From: an uncultured Hyphomicrobiales bacterium
GTDB lineage: Bacteria > Bacteroidota > Ignavibacteria > Kapaibacteriales > UBA2268
Assembly: GCA_964465945.1 (NCBI GenBank)
Contig: CAYXMM010000002.1
Location: 66,691 to 130,690, forward strand
Length of the DNA: 64,000 bases
Direction: 5' to 3'
The position numbers and the translations under genes are program-made. Shown here piece after piece: positions 17,394 to 50,842 of this stretch. The notes beneath the pieces are model-generated. The model ran no database searches, was not told where the DNA came from, and worked only from the letters and a program-made list of their open reading frames with translations. Numbering within the stretch: position 1 is the first letter of the stretch; each line of letters opens with the position of its first letter.

Positions 17394-18779
17394 TTAGTTT
17401 ATTTTACTTAGAATTTCAGTAACGACTTCTTCCATTTTCATACCTCTTGAACCTTTTACTAATATTATATCATTATCGGCTAGTGAGTTCAAAAGTTTTG
17501 AAGTTATTTCTGACTTATTTTCAAAATTAAGATTTCTATCCACACTATTATAAATTGGTCCATAAGTGTAAATTTGTGTTGTTACACTTTTAGCATTATC
17601 TAAGATTAGTTGATGTTCTTTAGCTGTTTCTTCGCCTAATTCAAGCATATCTCCGAGTACAATATGGATATTTTTCTTGTCTTTAAAACTCGATACTAAA
17701 TTAATCATTTCAGCTACGCTTCCTGGATTTGCATTGTAAGTGTCGTTTATTATTTTGATATTATTTTTATTAATAACAGAAAGTCGTCCATATTCAGTTG
17801 AAGTATCAGGAGTAAAAGATTCTAAGCCCTTTTTCACTTCTTCTTCACTTAAATCTAAGTTCAATCCAATTGCTGAAGCGGCAAGTGCATTTATTGCACC
17901 TGGGTATCCTGGTACATTAATTTTTGCAGTAAGCTCTTTTTGATTAAACTTAGCAGTTATTGTCGGCATTAAATCATCGTCATATTCAACGTCTCCAACC
18001 AGCATTGCCTCATTTGTGAATCCATAACTTACTCTCTTTTCGAGTACCATTGTATATTTTTTTAGTCGAGTATCATCAAGGTTAATATATGAGAAAATAT
18101 CGTGTTTCTTTGCGTAATTAAATAGATTTGTCTCTTCAATTTCTACTCCGTCTATGTCAATTAAAACTTCGAGGTGTTCTTTGTTAATATTAGTTATAAG
18201 AGCATGATTTGGGTTGACGATTTTGCTTAATTCTGCAATTTCACCGAAGGAATTTGTTCCCATTTCAATAACTGCAGCAGTATGACTTTCATCTAATTGT
18301 AAAAGCATAAGGGGAACGCCTAACTGATTATTATAATTTTTATAAGTTTTTAAAACATTAAACTTAGTAGATAAAACTGAAGCGATTAATTCTTTCGTTG
18401 TAGTTTTTCCGTTAGAGCCAGCAACAGCAATAATAGGAATGCTAAACCTACTTCTGTGGTAATTAGCGGTTTCACCGAGAGCTTTATAAGAGTTTTTTAC
18501 AACAATAATTGGTAAATCTTTTAATTCTTCTTTGTTTTGTATATACCAATTTTGTTCAACAAACGCAAGAGATGCGCCGAGTTCAAAAGCATCATTCACA
18601 CGACTATGTCCGTCTGAATTTGCCCCTTTTAAAGCAAAGAAAGCATTTCCTTGATTTATTGTTCTTGTGTCAATCGAAATGCCTTCTACTAAAATATCAT
18701 TATTTATATTATGAAGATCATTCTGTCCAAAAAGGATGAATAAGTCTTCAAAATTAAACTTAGCTCTATTCTTTATCAT
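17394..18779 (-). CDS. murF: UDP-N-acetylmuramoyl-tripeptide--D-alanyl-D-alanine ligase
   Basis: GSNGKTTTKE Mur-ligase P-loop; N-terminal ...FFALKGANSDGH... MurF-type motif; 461 aa. Confidence 0.85.
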   Translation of the reverse strand: MIKNRAKFNFEDLFILFGQNDLHNINNDILVEGISIDTRTINQGNAFFALKGANSDGHSRVNDAFELGASLAFVEQNWYIQNKEELKDLPIIVVKNSYKALGETANYHRSRFSIPIIAVAGSNGKTTTKELIASVLSTKFNVLKTYKNYNNQLGVPLMLLQLDESHTAAVIEMGTNSFGEIAELSKIVNPNHALITNINKEHLEVLIDIDGVEIEETNLFNYAKKHDIFSYINLDDTRLKKYTMVLEKRVSYGFTNEAMLVGDVEYDDDLMPTITAKFNQKELTAKINVPGYPGAINALAASAIGLNLDLSEEEVKKGLESFTPDTSTEYGRLSVINKNNIKIINDTYNANPGSVAEMINLVSSFKDKKNIHIVLGDMLELGEETAKEHQLILDNAKSVTTQIYTYGPIYNSVDRNLNFENKSEITSKLLNSLADNDIILVKGSRGMKMEEVVTEILSKIN

Positions 18780-19524
18780 TTTTTTCTTTCATTATTTGTT
18801 GTGTAAGCAATTCGATTTCTTTTTTGAACTTACCATTAGCAAATTTTGATTCATAAATTTTAATTAATCCGAGGGCTTCTTCATGTCTATCCATGTAATC
18901 AAGTGTTTTGATTTTCCCGAAATAAGCATCTTCAAAGTATTGAGTATCATCATATTTATTAATTACTTCATCATAATAAATTAAAGCCGCTCTTGGAGCA
19001 TCTAAAATCATATAAATTTCAGCAATATGATATTGTTTATGAGCTAATTTACCCCGAAGTACTTCAATTAATTTGTCTGCTTCTTTAGTTAAGCTATCAT
19101 TAGGGTAAACATATTGAAATTCTTGTAGTGATTCTATTGCTTTGTTGGTATATTCTTGGTCTCGTTCAAATGAAGGAGATAGCATAAAGTAGCATTTAGC
19201 AGATTTGAACATTGCCTCTTTTGCGTATTCTGTTGAAGGGTAAATTCTACGTAGGTTGTTGTAATTGAAAGCAGCTAATATATAATTGCCATCATTAAAA
19301 TCACACTCTGAGAGATAATACTGAGCTTTCTCAGCATAATTTGATGCTGGAAATTGTAATTTAATTATATCAAACTTTTGTTTTGCTTTAAAATAATCTT
19401 CATCATTAAAATATTCCATTGCTTGGTTAAAAACGGCTTCAGGAGTTTTTGATGATTCAGATTTATCCGAAGAACAAGAGACAATGCTAATTAAACTTAA
19501 AAATATTAGGAATTTTAATTTCAT
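18766..19524 (-). CDS. bamD: outer membrane protein assembly factor BamD (TPR lipoprotein)
   Basis: Lipoprotein signal (LISIVSCSS) from the internal Met; TPR-like repeats; overlaps the murF start. Confidence 0.7.
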   Translation of the reverse strand: MKLKFLIFLSLISIVSCSSDKSESSKTPEAVFNQAMEYFNDEDYFKAKQKFDIIKLQFPASNYAEKAQYYLSECDFNDGNYILAAFNYNNLRRIYPSTEYAKEAMFKSAKCYFMLSPSFERDQEYTNKAIESLQEFQYVYPNDSLTKEADKLIEVLRGKLAHKQYHIAEIYMILDAPRAALIYYDEVINKYDDTQYFEDAYFGKIKTLDYMDRHEEALGLIKIYESKFANGKFKKEIELLTQQIMKEKNDKE

Positions 19525-37682: not shown

Positions 37683-39458
37683 TTATAGCTGAATTGTACT
37701 GTCGTTTAATGATTCTAAGAAATCAACAGCGTTTTTAAGGGCTTTGCCTGCTAATATTCCGTCGATTACTCTGTGGTCATAAGTTATTGACATATACATT
37801 ATATGTCTTATTACGATTGCGTCTTCTCCATTTAATTCTCTTACAACTGCTTGTTTTTTGATTGCTCCAACTCCAAAGATTACGCATTGTGGTTGGTTTA
37901 TAACAGGTGTACCGAATAATGTTCCGAATGTTCCAACATTTGTTAGTGTGATTGTTCCACCCATAATGTTATCTGGGTCAAGTTTTTTGTTTCTTGCTCT
38001 TGTTGCTAAGTCAGTGATTGAACGTTGTAAGCCAGTTAAGCTTAGTCCATCTGCTGATTTAACAACTGGAACAATTAAGTTTCCGTCTGGTAGCGCTGTT
38101 GCAATTCCAATGTTTGTGTTTCTGTGTTTGAGGATATTTGTTCCGTCAACGCTAACGTTAATCATTGGGTTTTGTCTTACTGCTTCTGCAACTGCTTGTG
38201 CGAAGAAAGAAGTGTAAGTTAGTTTGATGCCTTCTTTTGCTTCAAATGAATTTTTATATTTTTCTCTAAATTTCACTAAGTTTGTAACATCAACTTCTGC
38301 AACAGATGTAACGTGAGCTGAAGTTCTTTTTGACATAACCATGTGCTCAGAGATTAATTTTCTCATTCTATCCATTGGAATGACGTCGTAATTACCACCA
38401 ACATAAGAAGGTGCTGCCGCTTGTTGAACTGGTGCAGGAGCAGGAGCTGGGGCAGATACAACAGGAGTAGGAGCTTGAACTGGCGTTGGAGCAGGAGTAA
38501 CTACTTGAGGAGCAGGAGCTTGTGCTGGCTGACTTCCTCTTGAATTGATGTAATTCATTAAATCGTCTTTTGTTACTCTACCTTCAATGCCTGTACCATT
38601 AATTGACATTAATTCTTCTAAGGATATTTTTTTGTCGGATGCAATTTCTCTTACTAAAGGTGAGAAGAATTTGCCATCTTTTGTTCTTGGAATTTCATAA
38701 GTTGTTCCAGAAACTTGCGCTGTTGGTGCTGAGTAAGTTTGTGCTACTGGTGCTTGTGCGACTACAGGAGTAGGTGCAGGTGCAGAAACAACAGGCGCAG
38801 GTGTTGCAATAGAGCCACCAGTAGAAATTCTTGCTATTGGAGTTCCAACTTCTACTGTTTGTTCTTCTTGAACTAAGATTTCTGAAATTGTTCCTGAAAC
38901 TGGAGAAGGCACTTCAGTATCCACTTTATCAGTTGAAATTTCGAGAATCATTTCATCTCTTTCTACTACATCGCCAACTTGTTTTAACCATTTAATAATT
39001 GTTCCTTCTTGTAAAGATTCACCCATTTTAGGCATAACAACATCAATTGTGTTGCCACCACTAACTGGAACAGGCGCTGAAGCAGGTGTCGGAGCTACTA
39101 CTGGTGCAGGCGCAGGTGTTGGAGCTACTACTGGTGCAGGCGCAGGTGTTGGTTCAACTACTGGTGCAGGAGTAGCAACTGGTGTAGCAACTGGTGTTGG
39201 AGCAGCTGGCGAAGCACTTGCATCAGTTTCAATAATTGCAATTGGAGTTCCAACTTCAACAGTTGTATCCGCAGGCACTAAAATTTTATATAAGATACCG
39301 GATTGAGGTGAAGGCACTTCAGTATCAACTTTATCTGTCGAGATTTCAAGGATCATTTCGTCTCTTTCAATTTTATCGCCCTCTTTCTTCATCCAATTTA
39401 TTATCGTCCCTTCTTGGAGTGATTCTCCCATTTTGGGCATTACGACTTCAACTTGCAT
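37683..39458 (-). CDS. 2-oxo-acid dehydrogenase E2 (dihydrolipoamide acyltransferase) with two lipoyl domains
   Basis: Two near-identical lipoyl domains (VVMPKMGESLQEGTI...EISTDKVDTEVPSP), Ala/Pro linkers, a subunit-binding domain and a C-terminal catalytic domain (DHRVIDG). AGGAG Shine-Dalgarno site upstream. Confidence 0.9.
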   Translation of the reverse strand: MQVEVVMPKMGESLQEGTIINWMKKEGDKIERDEMILEISTDKVDTEVPSPQSGILYKILVPADTTVEVGTPIAIIETDASASPAAPTPVATPVATPAPVVEPTPAPAPVVAPTPAPAPVVAPTPASAPVPVSGGNTIDVVMPKMGESLQEGTIIKWLKQVGDVVERDEMILEISTDKVDTEVPSPVSGTISEILVQEEQTVEVGTPIARISTGGSIATPAPVVSAPAPTPVVAQAPVAQTYSAPTAQVSGTTYEIPRTKDGKFFSPLVREIASDKKISLEELMSINGTGIEGRVTKDDLMNYINSRGSQPAQAPAPQVVTPAPTPVQAPTPVVSAPAPAPAPVQQAAAPSYVGGNYDVIPMDRMRKLISEHMVMSKRTSAHVTSVAEVDVTNLVKFREKYKNSFEAKEGIKLTYTSFFAQAVAEAVRQNPMINVSVDGTNILKHRNTNIGIATALPDGNLIVPVVKSADGLSLTGLQRSITDLATRARNKKLDPDNIMGGTITLTNVGTFGTLFGTPVINQPQCVIFGVGAIKKQAVVRELNGEDAIVIRHIMYMSITYDHRVIDGILAGKALKNAVDFLESLNDSTIQL

Positions 39459-39939: not shown

Positions 39940-40142
39940 GGCATGTCGCTACTACGGAGTTTTTTTATTTCACTAAAGCCGATGTGATTTGGGTTTTGAT
40001 GAATGGGCTGAAGCCCTATCCTATTGATTTATCCAAATTTTATTGTTGCTTTCCACCTACCCCTACTCAACGATTTTGATTTATTTAAATTAGAAAAACT
40101 ACGTAGTAGTTTAATATCAATAGTATTAGAAATATAAATGAG
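39940..40142. repeat. REP-like imperfect repeats flanking the 3' side of the RAYT gene
   Basis: Contains CTACTACGGAG, GGGCTGAAGCCCTATCCTATTGATTT, TTCCACCTACCCCT...ATTTTGATTT and AAAAACTACGTAGTAGTTTAATATCAATAG. Each has a partner on the other flank or elsewhere in the window. Confidence 0.55.
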
Positions 40143-40619: not shown

Positions 40620-40950
40620 AATATTATTGTATCTGATTTTTATATTCTACTCCTACGGAGCAGGTTGTATTGTTGTATCGTTTGCTATTGATATTAAACT
40701 GCTACGCAGCTTTAAAATATTTTTGCCTTTGTGTTCCACCTGCCCATTAATCCCGTCGGGATAATATGTTTATAGTATTATTTTAGTTAGTATGGATACG
40801 ACTCCGACGGAGTCTCACCTTGTTTTTAGTTTTTTTTTGCTATAAACGTTTGAATCCGAGGGATTCGGGTTTGGCTAAAGCCATTATTTATTTGGTGTTA
40901 TGTGATAGGGCTGAAGCCCATTCCTATTGATTTTATTGATATTTTAAATT
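40620..40950. repeat. REP-like imperfect repeats flanking the 5' side of the RAYT gene
   Basis: CTCCTACGGAGCAG, CTGCTACGCAGC, TTCCACCTGCCCAT, CGACTCCGACGGAGTC, GGGCTGAAGCCCATTCCTATTGATTT. Several partner with motifs in 39940..40142. Confidence 0.55.
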
Positions 40951-40952
40951 AT

Positions 40953-41711
40953 TTAATTATTATCATAACTAGCTGTGTCTATACCAGAATGCTTGTAAAT
41001 AACTTGATTTGAATTTTGATTTTGATTTGTTTTATTTATTTCTGTTTCAAATTTCTGTAAATCTTCTTGTTCTATATCATCTTTTAAAATATAATTCTTG
41101 AATATATTCCATAATACTCTTAATATAAAACTAAAGATATAATAAGTAAAGTATAATAAAACCATTAGCAATAAAAAATCATCATATTCTAACTTTACAA
41201 ATAAAAATATTACTACAATAAGACCAAGTAATAAAATTGTAAATTTAATTGGGACTTCTAGTTTGTCTTCATAAATCTTTTCAATTCTTTTTATTTGATT
41301 TTTAATTGTTATTCTGAAATCATTGTTATTACTTTCAACCTTCCTAATGATATCTTCGTTTTTATTAGTTTTTGAATAAGATATTTCATAATTAAAAATT
41401 CTAAATAATTTTCCTGAAGAATTTAATTTTAATTTGTTTCTAAAAATAACATCTAAAAATAAAATGACTGCCCAAATCACATCTACTATATTCCAAAGTT
41501 CCCTTCCAAATGATATTTTAAAAAAAGGGTTAATTAGTATAGCTGATCCAATCCAAAGTATTAATAAGGGTTTCTGTTCTTTATCTAAGTAAGCAAAATA
41601 GATAAACCCAATCATTCCTGCTAATCTAACAAACATATAATATCCATAAGGCATATTTATTAAACAAATCAGGAATATAACAGCTAATATTATTTTTACT
41701 ATTCTCATCAT
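40953..41711 (-). CDS. hypothetical polytopic membrane protein (third gene of the cassette downstream of the MmeI-like gene)
   Basis: Three N-terminal TM helices, a charged middle segment, two more TM helices and an N/Q-rich tail. No recognisable motif. Confidence 0.5.
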   Translation of the reverse strand: MMRIVKIILAVIFLICLINMPYGYYMFVRLAGMIGFIYFAYLDKEQKPLLILWIGSAILINPFFKISFGRELWNIVDVIWAVILFLDVIFRNKLKLNSSGKLFRIFNYEISYSKTNKNEDIIRKVESNNNDFRITIKNQIKRIEKIYEDKLEVPIKFTILLLGLIVVIFLFVKLEYDDFLLLMVLLYFTYYIFSFILRVLWNIFKNYILKDDIEQEDLQKFETEINKTNQNQNSNQVIYKHSGIDTASYDNN

Positions 41712-41725
41712 AATTAAAAATTATT

Positions 41726-42493
41726 TTATTTATTTTTCACTTTTTGATGTTCTGAAATAAAGTCATGAATATATGTGTTGTTAAGATGAAGATCATTTCT
41801 CATCATGTCAATAAGACTGTCAAAATTTTCAGATATCGTAACAAGTTTTTTTTCTATTTCGGCAGGCATATCTTGAACTTCTTTTGAAAATTCCATTTTC
41901 TGAATTTCGTGGATTTCAAATAGAGATTTCATGAGTTTCTGAAATTCATCCCTAATTGAATTAGGAAATAAGCTGCTGTTGTCCAAGGAATTTTTCTTTA
42001 TTCTATTTAACAGTGAGGATCCAAAGTTCAAGTAGACAGAACGATAGTATTCATATGAGTCTTCGATAATAGCATTTCCTTCATGGTAAATTTGTTCAAC
42101 ATTAAACAGATCTGACTTAGACTTTATTAAGTCTTTGAGTGAGCTTGTTTTGTCCTTAAAGATTTCATTTTGTACTGATTGAAGAGAAGAAATTACTATC
42201 GGTTGAAATGAAGACTTGATTTGATTAATCTCAACTTGGTTTTTGTCAGTTTCAGTCTCAACTCTTTTTAATTCCGCTCTTTCTTTTTTTCTAGTTAGAA
42301 GACGTGTAATCCAAAATGTAAGAAGTGTAACAAGTAGCGGAAATACTAACGATATTAATATGGGATTTGTTAGAAAACTATAGTCATCTTTTTTAGATTG
42401 AATAGCCTCTATTGTTATCTTTCCTTCTTTATTGTTATAGGAAATAACTTCGTCTAAATTGACTTTATATATTGTCGTATCTTTTTGGTTCAT
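41726..42493 (-). CDS. hypothetical single-pass membrane protein with long helical/coiled-coil C-terminal region
   Basis: One TM segment (PILISLVFPLLVTLLTFWITRLL), then a K/E-rich helical region. Sits 14 bp upstream of the next gene. Confidence 0.5.
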   Translation of the reverse strand: MNQKDTTIYKVNLDEVISYNNKEGKITIEAIQSKKDDYSFLTNPILISLVFPLLVTLLTFWITRLLTRKKERAELKRVETETDKNQVEINQIKSSFQPIVISSLQSVQNEIFKDKTSSLKDLIKSKSDLFNVEQIYHEGNAIIEDSYEYYRSVYLNFGSSLLNRIKKNSLDNSSLFPNSIRDEFQKLMKSLFEIHEIQKMEFSKEVQDMPAEIEKKLVTISENFDSLIDMMRNDLHLNNTYIHDFISEHQKVKNK

Positions 42494-42561
42494 TTTTAAT
42501 TAGGCCTCAATTTGTTGTTAAAATAATATTTTTTACTTACAAAATAAATACAATTCCCCAC

Positions 42562-43215
42562 CTACTCCTCCTCACAAATTTTGATTTCTGCTCTTTGTAA
42601 ATAACTATCTAAATTGTTTTGTCTATCAAATATTAAAGCAATTGTGTATTGCAATTTTGTTATAGTTAAAACATTGAATTTAGGTAATGGTATTAGGCAA
42701 CGAAAACCATCAACATATACTAAAATAAATGATTCTATTGTATTATTATTATATGATAAATGATAATGAAAACTGCTTGCTTTTGGATCAGGAAATTTAT
42801 TAGCCCACGTCTCTACAAAATTATCATTTAATTCATCATTAATGTTATGCGAATATAACTTTAATTTTGGATCATTTTTATAAATAGATTTGTCGAATTC
42901 ATTATCTTCACTTGTTTCCCAATCAAAAATAGAATTAGTCATAGCTACAAATTCAAGAATTTCATTTTTACTCATATCACTTAATTTCTTCGGTGGTGGA
43001 TCAAAGTGATTTGCTATTGCTTTAGAGCTAAATAAGGCACCAGATAGAAAATATAATAATACGCTAATTGGTTCAAAAATTCCTAAGTCGTTAAATATTA
43101 TCCATAAAATTGTAATTATAATTGCTACAACTGCCTTTATAAAAGCAGTTACAAATATTTTTGAAATATTATTTCTTAAAAACTTAGCAAATTTAATAAC
43201 TTTCGTTTCCATCAC
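42562..43215 (-). CDS. hypothetical membrane-anchored protein, translationally coupled to the MmeI-like gene
   Basis: Two N-terminal TM helices plus a ~150-aa soluble domain. The start ATG overlaps the stop of the R-M gene (ATGA at 43212..43215). Confidence 0.5.
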   Translation of the reverse strand: MMETKVIKFAKFLRNNISKIFVTAFIKAVVAIIITILWIIFNDLGIFEPISVLLYFLSGALFSSKAIANHFDPPPKKLSDMSKNEILEFVAMTNSIFDWETSEDNEFDKSIYKNDPKLKLYSHNINDELNDNFVETWANKFPDPKASSFHYHLSYNNNTIESFILVYVDGFRCLIPLPKFNVLTITKLQYTIALIFDRQNNLDSYLQRAEIKICEEE

Positions 43216-45947
43216 CCCCTCCTCTTCTTTTTACCGGTTGTGAATAAATCGGCGGTGTATTTTTCGTATAGTTGGAATAGGTATTCTAATCGCTCGGCTT
43301 CGGTGGTGAAAGGGGCGGAGCGATAGGATTTGTCAACTGCTTTGTCTAATTCGTTGTGGGCTTTTACTAAGTCTGGGGGCATTGTTAATGGGTCGTATAA
43401 TACTGCCAATGAGGACTCTGGGTATTTTGCTCTGATGTCTAATACTTGTTGGGCTTTTTCTTCGATTGCTTGTATTTGTTTTTCTGTAGGGTTTTCTGGC
43501 CAAGGATAGTTATTATAAACTATATCTTTTGAATATCTATAATCACTTTTCAATCTTCCACAGACTGTTTTTACCCAATTCATGTGCATAATTGAAGATA
43601 ATACACCAAAATGGAAATGAGTCGCATTTGGAAGTGAGAACATAGTATCACTAACAATCACGTCTTTTTTAAAAAATCCAATAGGAATATATTTCCTATT
43701 TTCAGAAGTTGTTCTTGGGATTATTAGATAATCATTCTCTGGTTGAGTTATTTGTCTAAATAATGTATGAGAAGTATAATCCCTGGTAGACTTAGCTTTA
43801 CTTTCACTTCTGAATTTTCTAACTAATTCAATTCTTTTTAAAATAAAGGGCATTTTTTTTAATTCATCAGGTTTAATGTCTTTCAACCATATGCACCATC
43901 TTTTTTTGTTATTTAAAAATTCTCTTGCACTTATAAATGGTTTTATTACATTTGAAGATAATGGATCATTTATAACAAAATCTTTTTTTTCTTCATCATC
44001 TAACAAGTAATGGCCACCATCAGTTGGTTTATTTCCATATTTCATTGATGGAACATTACATACTGGAAATGTTCTATTTTGGATTAATATATTAGGAGCA
44101 TCAATCAAATAAGGGTTTATATTTTTAACTTTAATTACGTATCCATCACCTTTAATGTCTGGGTAATCATAGATTTTTTTATTTTTAATATCATAATTTG
44201 CAAAACCAATTATTACACAATAGACAGCGGCTTTATCTTTAGCTTCATTAGACCATTTGAAAGTACGATGAGCGAAGTGAATATATATATTATATTTTTC
44301 TAATAAAGTATACCATAAAATTCCTACTTGTTCACCTTGGACTAATGAATTTGTTGATACTAAAGCTACTTTTATATTAGTGCCTTGAATGTATTTTAAT
44401 GATAAATAAAACCAAGCAGAAACAAAATCAAGTACCCCATTTGCTTTTATATCATTTAGAACATTTGTCATATCTAATTTTTGTTCTTTTGTTTGTAAAT
44501 GATGTCCAATAAATGGTGGATTACCAATAATATAAGATAGTTCGTTTTTGTTGATTACATCGTTCCAATCAAGTTTTAAGGCGTTTGCATTATGGATATT
44601 AGCGGATTTGACAAGTGGGATACGAGTTAAGTATTGTCCGAACTCATTACTGACTTTTATATTCATTTGGTGGTCGATAAGCCACATAGCAACTTCGGCG
44701 ATACGAGCAGGGAATTCTTCGAGTTCGATACCATACATCATATCTACATTGAGTTTAATCATTTCGCTAATTTCGAGAATTTGCTGACCATCGTCGTATA
44801 GTTTTTTTAGGATTTCGATTTCAAGTAGGCGTAGTTCTCTATAAGTGATAATTAGGAAATTGCCACAACCACAAGCTGGGTCAAGGAATTTGAGTTTGCT
44901 TAGTTTATCGTGGAATTGAGTAAGTTTATTTTTGTTATGTTTTACATTATTAAATTCTTCCCATAATTCATCAAGGAAAAGTGGCTTAATAAGTTTTAAG
45001 ATGTTTTTTTCTGAAGTGTAATGAGCACCGAGATTTCTTCTTTCTGTTGGGTCCATAACAGATTGGAACATAGAGCCGAAAATCGCAGGTGAGATTTTAC
45101 TCCAATCGAGATAGCAACATTCGAGAAGGGTTTGTCGCATCTTTGAATCAAAACTTGCAATAGGAAGAACTTCTTCGAATAACTTTCCATTTATATAAGG
45201 AAAAGCGTTGAGTTGTTCGTCGATGTTTTTAAATCTTTTTTCTCTTGGGGTATTAAGAACTTGGAAGAGTTCTTGTAAGCGAGAGGCAAGGTCAGAGCCA
45301 TCTGGTTGGGTTCTTTCTTCTATGAAAAATTGGAAAGATTGCCTATCGAAAATACCAGTATCTTCTGCGAATAAACAGAATAAAATTCTAACAAGATAAA
45401 CTTCGAGTTCGTGGCCAGAATAGCCAATTTCTTCTAATCTATCATGAAATTTACCGAGTAATTCAGCTGCTTTGATATTAACAGGGTCTTGTTCTTTGAA
45501 TACTTTTTGTTCGTAGCCAGCGATGAAATCAAAGTAATGTAGATTATCGAGGAGTTCAGAAATTAAAAATATGTGTTTGGTGTTTTCTTCCAAATGATAA
45601 AGATGGAATTGATTAAAGTCTGAAACTAAAATATATCTTGGGAGTTCATATTGCGGAATATTATATAAATAATCTTTTGCTTGTTGGAATGCTTTTTCAA
45701 GGTCTTTGCCTCTGCTTTTCATTTCAACAATAATAGTTGCCTTCCAGAAAAGGTCGATATATCCGTCGTTTTCGTTAAGTTTTTTTACTTTATGTTCGAA
45801 GGTGGCGATTCTTTTTCTTTCAACACCAAAGATTTTGAAGAAGTCTTCAAGAAATGGTTTTGCTTCGGCATCTTCGCTTGTTTCGTCTTTCCATTTGTCA
45901 ATAAAAGCGACTGCTCTTTGTTTTATTTCGTTTTTGCTAAGGGGCAT
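43212..45947 (-). CDS. MmeI-family Type IIL restriction-modification enzyme (fused PD-ExK endonuclease + gamma-class N6-adenine methyltransferase + TRD)
   Basis: N-terminus MPLSKNEIKQRAVAFIDKW...AKPFLEDFFKIFGV...DLFWKATIIVEMKSRGKDL parallels the MmeI N-terminal nuclease domain (D...E-x-K), as recalled from memory. SAM motif I FLDPACGCGNFL, motif IV IIGNPPFIG and the conserved YRELRLLEIE / HYTSEKNILKLIKPLFLDEL blocks are present. 911 aa. Confidence 0.8.
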   Translation of the reverse strand: MPLSKNEIKQRAVAFIDKWKDETSEDAEAKPFLEDFFKIFGVERKRIATFEHKVKKLNENDGYIDLFWKATIIVEMKSRGKDLEKAFQQAKDYLYNIPQYELPRYILVSDFNQFHLYHLEENTKHIFLISELLDNLHYFDFIAGYEQKVFKEQDPVNIKAAELLGKFHDRLEEIGYSGHELEVYLVRILFCLFAEDTGIFDRQSFQFFIEERTQPDGSDLASRLQELFQVLNTPREKRFKNIDEQLNAFPYINGKLFEEVLPIASFDSKMRQTLLECCYLDWSKISPAIFGSMFQSVMDPTERRNLGAHYTSEKNILKLIKPLFLDELWEEFNNVKHNKNKLTQFHDKLSKLKFLDPACGCGNFLIITYRELRLLEIEILKKLYDDGQQILEISEMIKLNVDMMYGIELEEFPARIAEVAMWLIDHQMNIKVSNEFGQYLTRIPLVKSANIHNANALKLDWNDVINKNELSYIIGNPPFIGHHLQTKEQKLDMTNVLNDIKANGVLDFVSAWFYLSLKYIQGTNIKVALVSTNSLVQGEQVGILWYTLLEKYNIYIHFAHRTFKWSNEAKDKAAVYCVIIGFANYDIKNKKIYDYPDIKGDGYVIKVKNINPYLIDAPNILIQNRTFPVCNVPSMKYGNKPTDGGHYLLDDEEKKDFVINDPLSSNVIKPFISAREFLNNKKRWCIWLKDIKPDELKKMPFILKRIELVRKFRSESKAKSTRDYTSHTLFRQITQPENDYLIIPRTTSENRKYIPIGFFKKDVIVSDTMFSLPNATHFHFGVLSSIMHMNWVKTVCGRLKSDYRYSKDIVYNNYPWPENPTEKQIQAIEEKAQQVLDIRAKYPESSLAVLYDPLTMPPDLVKAHNELDKAVDKSYRSAPFTTEAERLEYLFQLYEKYTADLFTTGKKKRRG

Positions 45948-45969: not shown

Positions 45970-46989
45970 TTAAAACATTGAGTTTTCGTCGTTTTTGGTT
46001 CGTTTTAGTCCTAACTGAATATATGCTTTATCGGTAGTCTGTCGACCTCTTGCTGTTCGTTGTATAAACCCTTGTCTTATTAAAAATGGTTCGTAAACTT
46101 CTTCGATTGTGTCGGATTCTTCGCCAACTGCGACTGCAATGGTGTTGATTCCGACGGGTCCTCCGTTGAATTTTTCGATTATTGTTTGTAGTATTCGTTT
46201 GTCCATTTCATCTAAGCCAAACTCGTCGACGTCTAAGGCGTTGAGTGTTTCTTTGGCTATGTTTTTGTCTAATAGTCCGTTGTTTTTTACTTCGGCGAAG
46301 TCTCTTGCTCGGCGTAGGAGCATATTGGCTATTCTTGGTGTTCCTCGCGAGCGTCTGGCTATTTCTGATGCTCCTTCAAGTTCTATGTTTATGTTGAGTA
46401 GTCCTGCGGAGCGAATTATTACTTTTATTAGTTCTTCGTCGTTGTAATAGTCTAATCGGTTTATTACTCCGAAACGTGAGCGTAGGGGAGCGGTTAGTAG
46501 TCCGGCTCTTGTTGTTGCTCCGATTAGTGTGAATTTTGGTATTGAGATTTGGACTGTACGTGCTGATGGTCCTGAGTCTATCATTATGTCGAGTTTATAG
46601 TCTTCCATTGCTGAGTATAAGTATTCTTCGACGACTGCTGAAAGTCGGTGTATTTCGTCTATAAATAGTATATCGCCTTCTTCTAAGTCAGTTAAGAGTC
46701 CAGCTAAGTCTCCAGGTTTTTCAAGTACTGGACCTGAAGTTGTTTTTATGTTTGTTCCCATTTCTCTTGAAATGATATAGCTTAGAGTTGTTTTTCCAAG
46801 TCCAGGGGGACCTGTTAGAAGGACGTGGTCTAATGCTTCTGACCTGTTTTTAGCAGCTTCAATGAAGATTTTTAGGTTATCAATTATTTTTTGTTGACCT
46901 ACAAATTCGTCAAAAACTGAGGGTCTTAATTTTTGGTCGAAATCTTCTTTTTGATTGCTTTGGTTGACTATTTCTCTAAATTCACTCAT
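45970..46989 (-). CDS. ruvB: Holliday junction branch-migration ATPase RuvB
   Basis: [12 protein letters not shown] Walker A motif, the RuvB-specific N-terminal LRP...EFVGQ, and a winged-helix C-terminus. Confidence 0.95.
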
Positions 46990-47986
46990 CTTTTTTATTT
47001 TCGTTTCTGTGTAAATGGACTGGGCATTTTCTTACTCCGTGTAGGATACAATCTCTTGGGCATGGTGTTGCATAAACTCTTGAAATTGCAGTAGGATAAA
47101 CGCTTTTTATTTGTCCTTGAATTTTTTTTTCCATAACTAACTTTTCTTCCATTGAGTAATCATAAGGAAGCATTATGTCAAGTTCAACGAAATAGTCTTT
47201 GCCTGATTGTCTTGTATGAACGGATTTGAATTCGCACATTTCGTGGACGTTTTCGGCGACTACTGCTATTATATCAAATTGAATATCATCGGGTAGAGTT
47301 TTGTCGAGTAATTGGTTAAGAGCGTCTTTTGAACCTTTAAGCGGGATTCTAAGGGCAAGAGCTGTTAGCATAAACGCAGTTAATGAATCTATTTGCTTTG
47401 CTATGTAATCTAAACCGAAGAAAATTAAAATAGTACCGAGTAATAAGTTGCATAGCACACCTAATTCGATGTAACTATCTGTTTTCCAAATCTCTGCGTC
47501 AAATTTAAGGATTGGTATTCTGAATCTTTTTGCGCTTGATTTTTGGTATTTATACATTCCATACATTAAGAAAAATGAAAAGAGCGAATAGAAAGATAGG
47601 AATGAATAGTTACCACTTTCGTAATCACCTTTAATATATACAATTATAACTTCCCAAAGTGCATATCCAAGTACTGCTAAGAGTAGAATTGCACTGATTA
47701 ATAATGTTAAACTTTCATACTTTCCGTAGCCGTAGTTGAAGACGTAGTCAGGAGTTCTAACTGAATGATTAACTGCAATCATCAGTAGAACTGAATTAAC
47801 AACGTCAATTAGTGCTATAAATCCGTTAATTTGAACTGCTAATGACGATTCTTGCGAACCGAGAATTATACCTGAAATTGCTAAAATTAATCCAACAAGT
47901 AATGAAAGTCTTGTTGAGAGTAAGGGAGAGCTTGGGTCTAATATGTTTTTAATTTTTGTTGATATGTTAGATTTATAATTGTGCAT
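46982..47986 (-). CDS. cation diffusion facilitator (CDF) family transporter
   Basis: Six-TM N-terminal domain plus a cytoplasmic C-terminal domain. Overlaps the ruvB start by 8 bp. Confidence 0.65.
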
Positions 47987-50767: not shown

Positions 50768-50842
50768 GGGATCGTAGCTCAGTTTGGTTAGAGCGCCAGT
50801 CTGTCACACTGGAGGTCGCGAGTTCGAGCCTCGTCGGTCCCG
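50768..50842 (+). tRNA. tRNA-Asp (GTC)
   Basis: Cloverleaf GGGATCG/CGGTCCC acceptor stem, anticodon loop CTGTCAC (anticodon GTC), T-arm GCGAGTTCGAGCCTCGT; CCA not encoded. Confidence 0.9.

Follow-up and report, generated by a model that had tools for sequence, protein, structure and literature searches.

Introduction

Membrane effectors with two transmembrane (TM) helices that occur in CBASS, Pycsar and type II Thoeris combine a TM hairpin with a nucleotide-sensing domain, and defence hotspots and cassette arrays are exemplified by integron cassettes and the P2/P4 hotspots. Among restriction-modification (R-M) systems, MmeI is active as a single polypeptide according to two reports (PMC2731913, PMC4833311). 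The PDC set of candidate defence genes in PADLOC goes back to Payne et al., whose 'guilt-by-embedding' approach took genes located inside BREX, DISARM and Type I R-M systems (bioRxiv 10.1101/2024.01.29.577857). Here we analyse a locus within a stretch of 64,000 nucleotides (contig CAYXMM010000002.1, positions 66,691 to 130,690) from an uncultured bacterium of the Kapaibacteriales lineage UBA2268; this whole stretch is referred to as the window. On its minus strand, ruvB is followed by a gene for a 911-aa MmeI-family enzyme, by three genes for membrane proteins, here called g2, g3 and g4, and by an IS200-like gene of the REP-associated tyrosine transposase (RAYT) type. An earlier note on this DNA had proposed that the enzyme and the three membrane proteins form one composite defence module.

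Our comparison with sibling contigs leads to a different view. The four genes very probably represent a strain-variable mosaic and not one system, and we consider it reasonably probable that an autonomous Type IIL enzyme anchors a hotspot of defence cassettes, with g2 as an abortive-infection candidate. Conceptually, the locus comes closest to the embedded or attached defence genes described by Payne et al., in combination with defence hotspots. New here are that cassettes are docked translationally onto a Type IIL gene, that a repeat marks their borders, and that an unclassified domain family shows a 2-TM architecture.

Results

Four layouts behind one RuvB protein

Sibling contigs were found by exact-protein look-ups and share an identical RuvB as well as flanks of about 92-95% nucleotide identity. 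The identical RuvB protein is present in 14 contigs carrying different downstream layouts. In layout A (window and L007), the MmeI gene is followed by g2, g3, g4 and the RAYT gene, and in layout B (L001; L063 stops within g2) by g2 and directly by the RAYT gene. Layout C (L008 and L060, which are the same contig) contains an unrelated 167-aa protein with two TM helices and a 46-aa relic open reading frame (ORF) ahead of g3 and g4. Layout D (L059 and L061) comprises a 192-aa protein with one TM helix, a 282-aa soluble protein and a RAYT that is only 55% identical to that of the window. The three proteins found in the first slot, namely g2, the 167-aa and the 192-aa protein, are unrelated in sequence. 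The flanks are fixed, with ruvB and the MmeI gene on one side of the variable slot and a gene for an E2 acyltransferase on the other.

The composite four-gene module is not supported by this comparison, as L001 lacks g3 and g4, L008 lacks g2, and L059 and L061 lack all three genes. L001, which is 94% identical to the window, joins window position 42558 straight to 40713, with 40714..42557 absent, and this deletion/insertion breakpoint is the exact outer end of the upstream inverted-repeat arm of the RAYT gene (40685..40713). The 282-aa protein of layout D (L059:14356-15204, plus strand; also in L061) matches the PADLOC profiles AbiJ (1e-7) and the N-terminus of Stk2 (2.5e-12) and carries the motif RDFRNYIHP (Rx6H, HEPN-like).

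RuvB and CoaD look-ups, covering about a dozen contigs of one species, recovered no empty slot, and many assemblies break at the locus. Many public assemblies end in or just past the E2 acyltransferase gene (contig ends L067-L076), a possible reason for the small number of contigs that cover the islet completely. In L059, the E2 acyltransferase gene and coaD are separated by an extra gene with Exo_endo_phos and Por_Secre_tail domains (17968-19053, minus strand), which is absent from the window. The presence of Por_Secre_tail domains in this region points to a host from the Bacteroidota/FCB group.

A complete MmeI-family enzyme with an exchanged specificity region

MmeI-family enzymes are single polypeptides of about 900-930 aa, composed of an N-terminal nuclease, a helical spacer, methyltransferase, target recognition and C-terminal domains; they cleave about 20/18 nt away from their asymmetric recognition site and methylate one strand to protect the host. 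All five Pfam MmeI domains were matched by the 911-aa protein (MmeI_N 5.5e-40, MmeI_hel 1.3e-25, MmeI_Mtase 4.4e-91, MmeI_TRD 4.7e-74, MmeI_C 2.8e-34), and the PADLOC profile REase_MTase_IIG scored 1226 bits. The alignment to MmeI (PDB 5HR4; 1133 bits) is collinear and full-length, covering aa 1-901 of the window protein and aa 1-906 of 5HR4. Near the N-terminus, the nuclease motif D-X9-E-X-K (DLFWKATIIVEMK) aligns to DLFWPGILLIEMK of MmeI. Methyltransferase motif I (xDPACGxGxF) reads FLDPACGCGNFL and contains DPACGCGNFL, and motif IV, NPPF, lies within IIGNPPFIG; both are conserved in 5HR4. The neighbouring genes ruvB and g2 carry no methyltransferase domain detectable with Pfam or PADLOC that would point to a separate cognate methyltransferase gene. 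Judged by these sequence features, the protein is a complete, apparently intact Type IIL R-M enzyme and a plain member of the MmeI family, as the earlier note had recognised. It is predicted to be autonomous, one chain uniting the nuclease, the N6-adenine methyltransferase and the specificity domain as in MmeI itself. It thus shares with MmeI the five domains, the D-X9-EXK motif, motifs I and IV and the single polypeptide. It differs from MmeI in that its gene is chromosomal and starts 22 nt after the ruvB stop, that its target recognition domain (TRD) is polymorphic among siblings, and that its stop codon is coupled to a variable gene.

TRD alleles were compared or noted in the window, L001, L008/L060 and L059. 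Among the alleles of the window, L001 and L008, aa 1-480 of the enzyme, its nuclease and methyltransferase half, are near-identical (29-30 of 30 residues per block), whereas the blocks in the region of aa ~480-810, TRD included, have only 8-24 identical residues out of 30 (about 40-80%). The blastn alignment to L001 shows a gap at 43706-43885, within this hypervariable part. The swapped target recognition region implies that recognition sequences differ within one species. The window and L001 have the same g2 (99% identical) but differ in their TRD alleles, so that TRD and cassette assort independently.

The closest plasmid-borne homologues of the enzyme are 50-55% identical and have variable downstream genes. 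On the Pseudomonas mendocina plasmid pPME5, an Abi_C protein is encoded 10 nt 3' of the stop codon, and in Spirosoma a CoiA gene and then a Cap4-nuclease/LmuA-like gene follow; the other two plasmid homologues have hypothetical genes downstream. This suggests that MmeI genes commonly reside in defence islands with changing neighbours. We considered the 282-aa protein of layout D as kin of the P. mendocina Abi_C protein, and no relatedness was detectable.

The first slot gene overlaps the MmeI stop codon

The junction of MmeI and g2 has the sequence AGGAGGGGGTGATGG. The earlier note had described a stop/start overlap of the form ATGA at 43212..43215; the overlap is real, but the minus-strand bases 43215..43212 read GTGA. 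The TGA stop of the MmeI gene (43214..43212) overlaps an ATG at 43212..43210 by one base and would overlap a GTG start at 43215 by four. With an AGGAGG Shine-Dalgarno sequence 5 nt upstream of the ATG, and with public gene calls that use the ATG, g2 probably starts at 43212 and then encodes 216 aa.

The junction GAGGAGGGGGTGATG is common to the window, L001, L059 and L063, where it stands ahead of two unrelated first genes, docked in each case behind AAGAGGAGGGGGTGATG. L060 has the variant GAGGAGGGGGAGGTGA, in which a GTG start overlaps the stop codon and a third unrelated first gene follows. In 4 of 4 layouts the first gene encodes a protein anchored in the membrane at its N-terminus, with two TM helices in g2 and in the 167-aa protein and one in the 192-aa protein.

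The four ORFs on the minus strand had been described correctly, including the gaps of 68 nt between g2 and g3 and of 14 nt between g3 and g4. On the upstream side, ruvB, itself close to the MmeI start codon, overlaps a gene for cation efflux (46982-47986) by 8 nt. With such close spacing of ruvB and the cation-efflux gene, tight spacing is no evidence of shared function here, and the defence genes may be co-transcribed with these housekeeping genes. A terminator scan detected no minus-strand terminator inside the four-gene block, and a promoter scan gave 56 sites compared to 49.4 +/- 7.4 in shuffled sequence, i.e. no enrichment.

Repeats at the cassette borders

A repeat of ~30 nt with the consensus GAAATCAAAATCGTTGAGGAGGGGTAGGTGG is located at cassette ends: at the end of g2, after the RAYT gene, at the end of the 46-aa relic ORF of L060 and after the 282-aa gene of L059. 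Its core, GAGGAGGGG-stop-GTG, resembles the MmeI gene's own 3' end. In the 64-kb window the repeat is confined to this locus (<=3 mismatches allowed; 0 copies expected by chance). The 46-aa ORF itself (L060:14262-14402, plus strand) ends with ...YKLYNLTEEEINIVEEG, and the border repeat encodes its EI(K/N)IVE(E) part; we take this ORF to resemble what remains of the C-terminal end of a methyltransferase or Type IIG gene.

Inverted repeats of 29 nt and GGGCTGAAGCCC palindromes flank the RAYT gene on both sides, as in a repetitive extragenic palindromic (REP)/RAYT element. ORFs, Y1_Tnp match and palindromes together bear out the earlier description of a block bounded by a RAYT/IS200-like element and ruvB. 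The position of the ~30-nt repeat suggests that recombination at this repeat may swap cassettes.

With defence hotspots and cassette arrays, the locus shares fixed flanks, interchangeable defence-type genes and short repeats at cassette borders. Unlike integrons, the locus has no annotated or detected integrase and no attC, and the border repeat is not among the inverted repeats found. Instead, the cassettes are translationally docked on a resident restriction gene, and a RAYT/REP cluster is present.

g2 combines a membrane hairpin with an unclassified domain

A hydropathy scan and the AlphaFold2 (AF2) model place two TM helices in g2 at about aa 17-40 and 47-71. They are followed by a C-terminal domain of ~135 aa with a predicted local distance difference test (pLDDT) score of 96.1 in the AF2 model. 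The N-terminus is rich in K/R and the loop between TM1 and TM2 is acidic, a charge distribution that places the C-terminal domain in the cytoplasm. Hydropathy scan and AF2 model also support the earlier view that all three downstream products are membrane proteins, with two TM helices in g2, one in g3 and five hydrophobic stretches in g4.

Pfam, NCBIfam and PHROGs gave no significant match for g2, and a word-indexed homologue search returned a near-identical copy of g2 alone. Relatives found in an exhaustive HMMER search (E <= 1e-3) amount to 485 representatives at 50% identity. According to a crude length-and-hydropathy classification, the best 150 of these 485 hits include ~50 proteins with a hydrophobic N-terminal segment and the domain, 64 proteins consisting of the domain only and 25 longer fusions. 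The full-length relatives (~200-230 aa) conserve W38 and E48 of the hairpin together with W99, W137, WANKFPDPxA, VDGxRxxLPxP and Y205 of the domain. Strongly conserved acidic or basic residues of the domain are D98, D115 and D169-G-x-R172.

In the examined fusions, the g2-type domain is located at or near the C-terminus. N-terminal partners are SIR2 (LmuA/ThsA-like profiles), TIR, bSEFIR (E 1.8e-76 and 4.5e-68), CAP12/Pycsar-type TIR and an Avs4-like N-terminus, and several family members of ~320-350 aa have a TIR-like N-terminal domain. In the fusion P0111, the bSEFIR match extends only to position 326 of the 412-position profile, the point at which the g2-type domain starts, so the domain is not covered by it. 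Similar to bSEFIR, TIR and SIR2 proteins and Avs, g2 would follow a two-part logic, with the membrane hairpin as putative effector; it differs from these single-protein defences in having no NADase or NTPase domain.

The PADLOC profile PDC-S50 matches aa 86-188 of g2 at E 3e-9, over ~100 positions (174-274 of 387), and on other family members its matches are likewise restricted to the shared C-terminal domain (~174-278). A full-length PDC-S50 match was not obtained for g2, and the closest full-length relative, P0016, has no PADLOC match at E <= 0.001. Because only a quarter of the profile matches, g2 is not a PDC-S50 member; what the two have in common is the domain. The name PDC-S50 was not found in the literature searched nor in the supplements of bioRxiv 10.1101/2024.01.29.577857. 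Like the PDC candidates, g2 is attached to a methyltransferase-based defence gene. It differs from PDC-S50 in the 2-TM hairpin N-terminal to the shared domain and in its host system, which is Type IIL and not BREX, DISARM or Type I. Foldseek searches against viral structures returned nothing at E <= 0.001, and PDB sequence searches with the g2 and g3 profiles were empty or gave E > 0.2.

With the 2-TM effectors of CBASS, Pycsar and type II Thoeris, g2 shares the N-terminal hairpin and the cytoplasmic C-terminal domain, and in its relatives the hairpin is interchangeable with TIR. A signal-producing gene (CD-NTase, cyclase or ThsB) was not detected in the block with Pfam or PADLOC, nor as a conserved neighbour in the loci described below, and g2 shows none of the known nucleotide-sensing domains SAVED, STING, cNMP-binding, Macro and SLOG. 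A Rousset-type 2TM/1TM/TIR system was discarded, as there is no TIR gene and the partial PDC-S50 match of g2 is the sole PADLOC hit of g2 and g3.

g2 relatives occur in mobile and defence islands

A pattern scan of genomes and metagenomes, based on a 6-sequence alignment, yielded 41 g2-family loci. None of the 41 contained relatives of MmeI, g3, g4 or RAYT (tblastn), and no neighbour family is conserved across them. The co-occurrence of the membrane proteins with MmeI-like genes, for which the earlier note had suggested a search, was thus not found, and g3 relatives (see below) equally lack MmeI, g2 and g4. Neighbours of g2 relatives are integrases, IS91/IstB transposition genes, Abi_alpha, RadC, Mrr, ResIII and D12 methyltransferase genes, furthermore GmrSD, nSTAND3, caspase and PCTIR genes, and a few housekeeping genes. 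The earlier note had set against its own proposal the possibility of a generic membrane operon conserved beside housekeeping genes. This possibility comes close to applying, since the genes are not co-conserved, but their other contexts are mobile and defence islands and not housekeeping operons.

Domain-only relatives of ~131-134 aa, annotated as hypothetical, are encoded on L051 (NZ_CP114776.1) and on 44 other plasmids. These are 4.6-kb ColE1-type plasmids from Klebsiella, Enterobacter and Raoultella, together with a conjugative plasmid from Shewanella. The g2 family and g3 are essentially absent from viral contigs, and an origin of g2 or g3 in phage lysis or superinfection exclusion was dropped for this reason.

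The defence-type role that had been suggested for the whole cassette is plausible for g2, given its PDC-S50 homology and the TIR, SEFIR, SIR2 and Avs4-like fusions of its relatives. On this comparative evidence, it seems somewhat probable that g2 is a defence protein, and it may represent a self-contained, single-gene abortive-infection candidate.

g3 and g4 are a separable pair

g3 contains a single TM helix (aa 45-63, hydropathy scan). Apart from an identical self-match, it has nine relatives with 51-61% identity. Three of them, on the long contigs L002, L003 and L006, are cargo of TraG/relaxase integrative mobilizable elements, one of them with an integrase. In all three contigs, the g3-like gene is followed by a gene for a 294-aa DUF5677 protein and by an oppositely oriented trio of Ymh, Fic and 154-aa protein genes. 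MmeI, g2 and g4 are not present around these three relatives. NACHT, NB-ARC, AAA_21 or TIR genes are found near g3 relatives. Many H, D and R residues are invariant throughout the g3 family (IYHEG; RNDLHLxNTxIHDF) and hint at a possible enzymatic or metal-binding role. Pfam and NCBIfam gave nothing significant for g3, and PADLOC had no hit for g3 or g4. A PHROG tape-measure match of g3 (E 9e-4) falls in the helical region and was treated as spurious.

g4 has five hydrophobic stretches (hydropathy scan). Its aa 1-88 match Pfam DUF6804 (PF20619; E 9e-27, 93.5 bits compared to a cut-off of 27), and the C-terminal 160 aa are not covered. Relatives of g4 have the DUF6804 part alone in common and stand in unrelated gene context.

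The G+C minimum of the neighbourhood, 0.231, falls in the g3-g4 stretch (41001-42000). The spacer between g2 and g3 (42496-42561, minus strand) is nearly filled by a 21-codon ORF, which begins with a GTG directly adjoining the g2 TAG and whose TAA lies 2 nt ahead of the g3 ATG; with a chance estimate of ~0.14 in such AT-rich DNA, this ORF may mean nothing. The positions of all features are given in Table 1. Outside the block, a tRNA gene (50768-50842, plus strand) is the sole Rfam match in the window, and the E2 acyltransferase gene (37683-39458, minus strand) encodes duplicated lipoyl domains with long Ala/Pro-rich linkers.

Table 1 Features of the islet between ruvB and the REP/RAYT cluster, with positions in the window.
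Feature	Position	Strand	Remarks
ruvB	45970..46989	-	Conserved core gene, fixed upstream border; Pfam RuvB_N, AAA, WHD_RuvB matches
MmeI-family Type IIL (IIG) R-M enzyme, 911 aa	43212..45947	-	Constant islet anchor
Hypervariable part of the MmeI gene, ~aa 480-810	43518..44510	-	Spans Pfam MmeI_TRD match aa 616-818; allele comparison
Docking junction GAGGAGGGGGTGATG	43210..43224	-	Shine-Dalgarno, MmeI TGA stop, overlapping start of first cassette gene; read from the sequence
g2, 217-aa ORF	42562..43215	-	2-TM hairpin and cytoplasmic ~135-aa domain, PDC-S50-related
Junction repeat, copy 1	42558..42587	-	Overlaps last codons and stop of g2; direct-repeat family, copies aligned from L001, L060, L059
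Separable block of 1.84 kb	40714..42557	-	g3, g4 and one REP-like palindrome; missing in sibling contig L001
g3, 255 aa	41726..42493	-	Single TM and conserved helical domain
g4, 252 aa	40953..41711	-	Polytopic; N-terminal DUF6804, then two further hydrophobic helices
REP-like palindrome GGGCTGAAGCCC, copy 1	40905..40923	not assigned	Repeat scan
Upstream inverted-repeat arm flanking the RAYT gene	40685..40713	not assigned	29 nt, 90% complementary
IS200-like Y1 transposase (RAYT-type), 158 aa	40143..40619	-	Pfam Y1_Tnp E 8e-26
Downstream inverted-repeat arm flanking the RAYT gene	40095..40123	not assigned	Repeat scan
Junction repeat, copy 2	40053..40083	-	3' of RAYT gene; direct-repeat family
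REP-like palindrome, copy 2	40001..40020	not assigned	Repeat scan

Discussion

Together, these data would fit the following account. The MmeI enzyme, fixed directly behind ruvB, would act alone, and its specificity domain would be exchanged between strains. Any gene landing behind the 3' junction of MmeI would be translated in coupling with MmeI, so that the slot could collect independent defence-type genes riding on MmeI expression, with the border repeat and the REP/RAYT cluster as putative recombination handles for cassette swaps. Within g2, the conserved 2-TM hairpin may be the effector that damages the membrane once triggered, and the cytoplasmic C-terminal domain may serve as trigger or regulatory module; in the paralogues, the hairpin would be replaced by NAD-degrading TIR, SEFIR or SIR2 domains. 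g3 and g4 would be a separately acquired, low-GC pair of membrane proteins.

Several points weigh against this account. The g2 domain has no solved structural relative that would point to a ligand or to catalysis, and the domain alone is the commonest form (64 of the 150 top hits), which does not sit well with a pure sensor role. Some domain-only relatives adjoin the housekeeping genes recR, recO and aspS, and the g2 domain family and PDC-S50 are candidate defence proteins only. Furthermore, that the first gene encodes a membrane-anchored protein in all four layouts could reflect a functional connection to MmeI, although the account above takes it as coincidence or as shared expression. Recombination at the 30-nt repeat is argued from the position of the repeat, and the sampling covers about a dozen contigs of one species and includes no empty site.

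Alternatively, g2, g3 and g4 may be accessory membrane proteins without a role in defence, with envelope or mobile-element functions, that have gathered in a recombination-prone REP/RAYT region. We consider this unlikely, as the g2 domain is repeatedly fused to the immune effector domains TIR, SEFIR and SIR2 and the Avs4 N-terminus, an alternative occupant of the slot is AbiJ-like, and conflict-system genes (NACHT, TIR, Fic, Ymh, Abi_alpha, Mrr and GmrSD) abound around the relatives of g2 and g3. The explanation is nevertheless in agreement with the lack of a Pfam family for g2 and g3, the match of g4 to just the uncharacterised DUF6804, the lack of a meaningful PHROGs match and of PADLOC hits for g3 and g4, and the position of domain-only g2 relatives near housekeeping genes or on 4.6-kb ColE1-type plasmids. 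Low G+C content and repeats, moreover, point to simple horizontal acquisition.

It is also conceivable, and in our view quite unlikely, that the C-terminal domain of g2 is itself active as a toxin, enzyme or inhibitor and that the 2-TM hairpin is a mere anchor. Polymorphic toxin modules often sit at protein C-termini, where the domain is also placed in the fusions, and the large class of domain-only proteins as well as the conserved D98, D115, D169-G-x-R172 and WANKFPDP would suit an activity of its own. However, the fusion partners TIR, SIR2 and SEFIR are already effectors, next to which a second effector would be unusual, the conserved W38 and E48 of the hairpin argue against a mere anchor, and there is no fold match to a known enzyme or toxin.

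A composite system, in which MmeI and the membrane proteins act jointly, for instance with a membrane effector that is guarded by MmeI, as the anticodon nuclease PrrC is guarded by EcoprrI, and that fires when a phage blocks MmeI, appears very unlikely. The stop/start overlap with its strong Shine-Dalgarno sequence, and the stop/start-coupled, membrane-anchored first gene in 4 of 4 layouts, would be expected of such a system, but the three first-slot proteins are unrelated in sequence, g2 is found with two TRD alleles, and g3 and g4 are dispensable, as seen in L001. The PDC candidates did come from genes embedded in methyltransferase-based defences; however, g2 relatives stand beside an MmeI-like gene in 0 of 41 loci, and the closest MmeI homologues have other, non-membrane neighbours. 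The precedent of PrrC and EcoprrI resembles the locus in that an abortive-infection-like gene is attached to an R-M gene and probably co-expressed with it. It differs in the proteins and in its conserved pairing, which is missing here given the 41 loci and the varying slot content, and MmeI itself is active as a single polypeptide (PMC2731913, PMC4833311). Very improbable, too, is the idea that the slot at the MmeI stop is a purpose-built docking site exchanging unrelated membrane-anchored effectors, whose function would in each case depend on licensing by the Type IIL enzyme in the manner of the PrrC guard; if it were true, the g2 domain would be a new trigger module common to TIR, SIR2, SEFIR and Avs-type immune proteins.

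Under the favoured account of an autonomous enzyme that anchors a hotspot of defence cassettes, the restriction enzyme is ordinary, and the locus is a compact natural case of cassette turnover on a resident restriction gene. At least three unrelated first genes share one translational junction, and the specificity domain is swapped independently. The locus therefore offers a concrete, testable picture of how a defence islet diversifies within one species. In addition, g2 opens a domain family of 485 clusters (50% identity) that has neither a Pfam family nor a solved structure. The pairing of this domain with hairpin, TIR, SEFIR, SIR2 and Avs4-type modules is the pattern typically seen where abortive-infection proteins have a trigger or regulatory module in common. 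Once identified, the ligand of the g2 domain would annotate hundreds of hypothetical proteins, including those on small plasmids of Klebsiella and Enterobacter.

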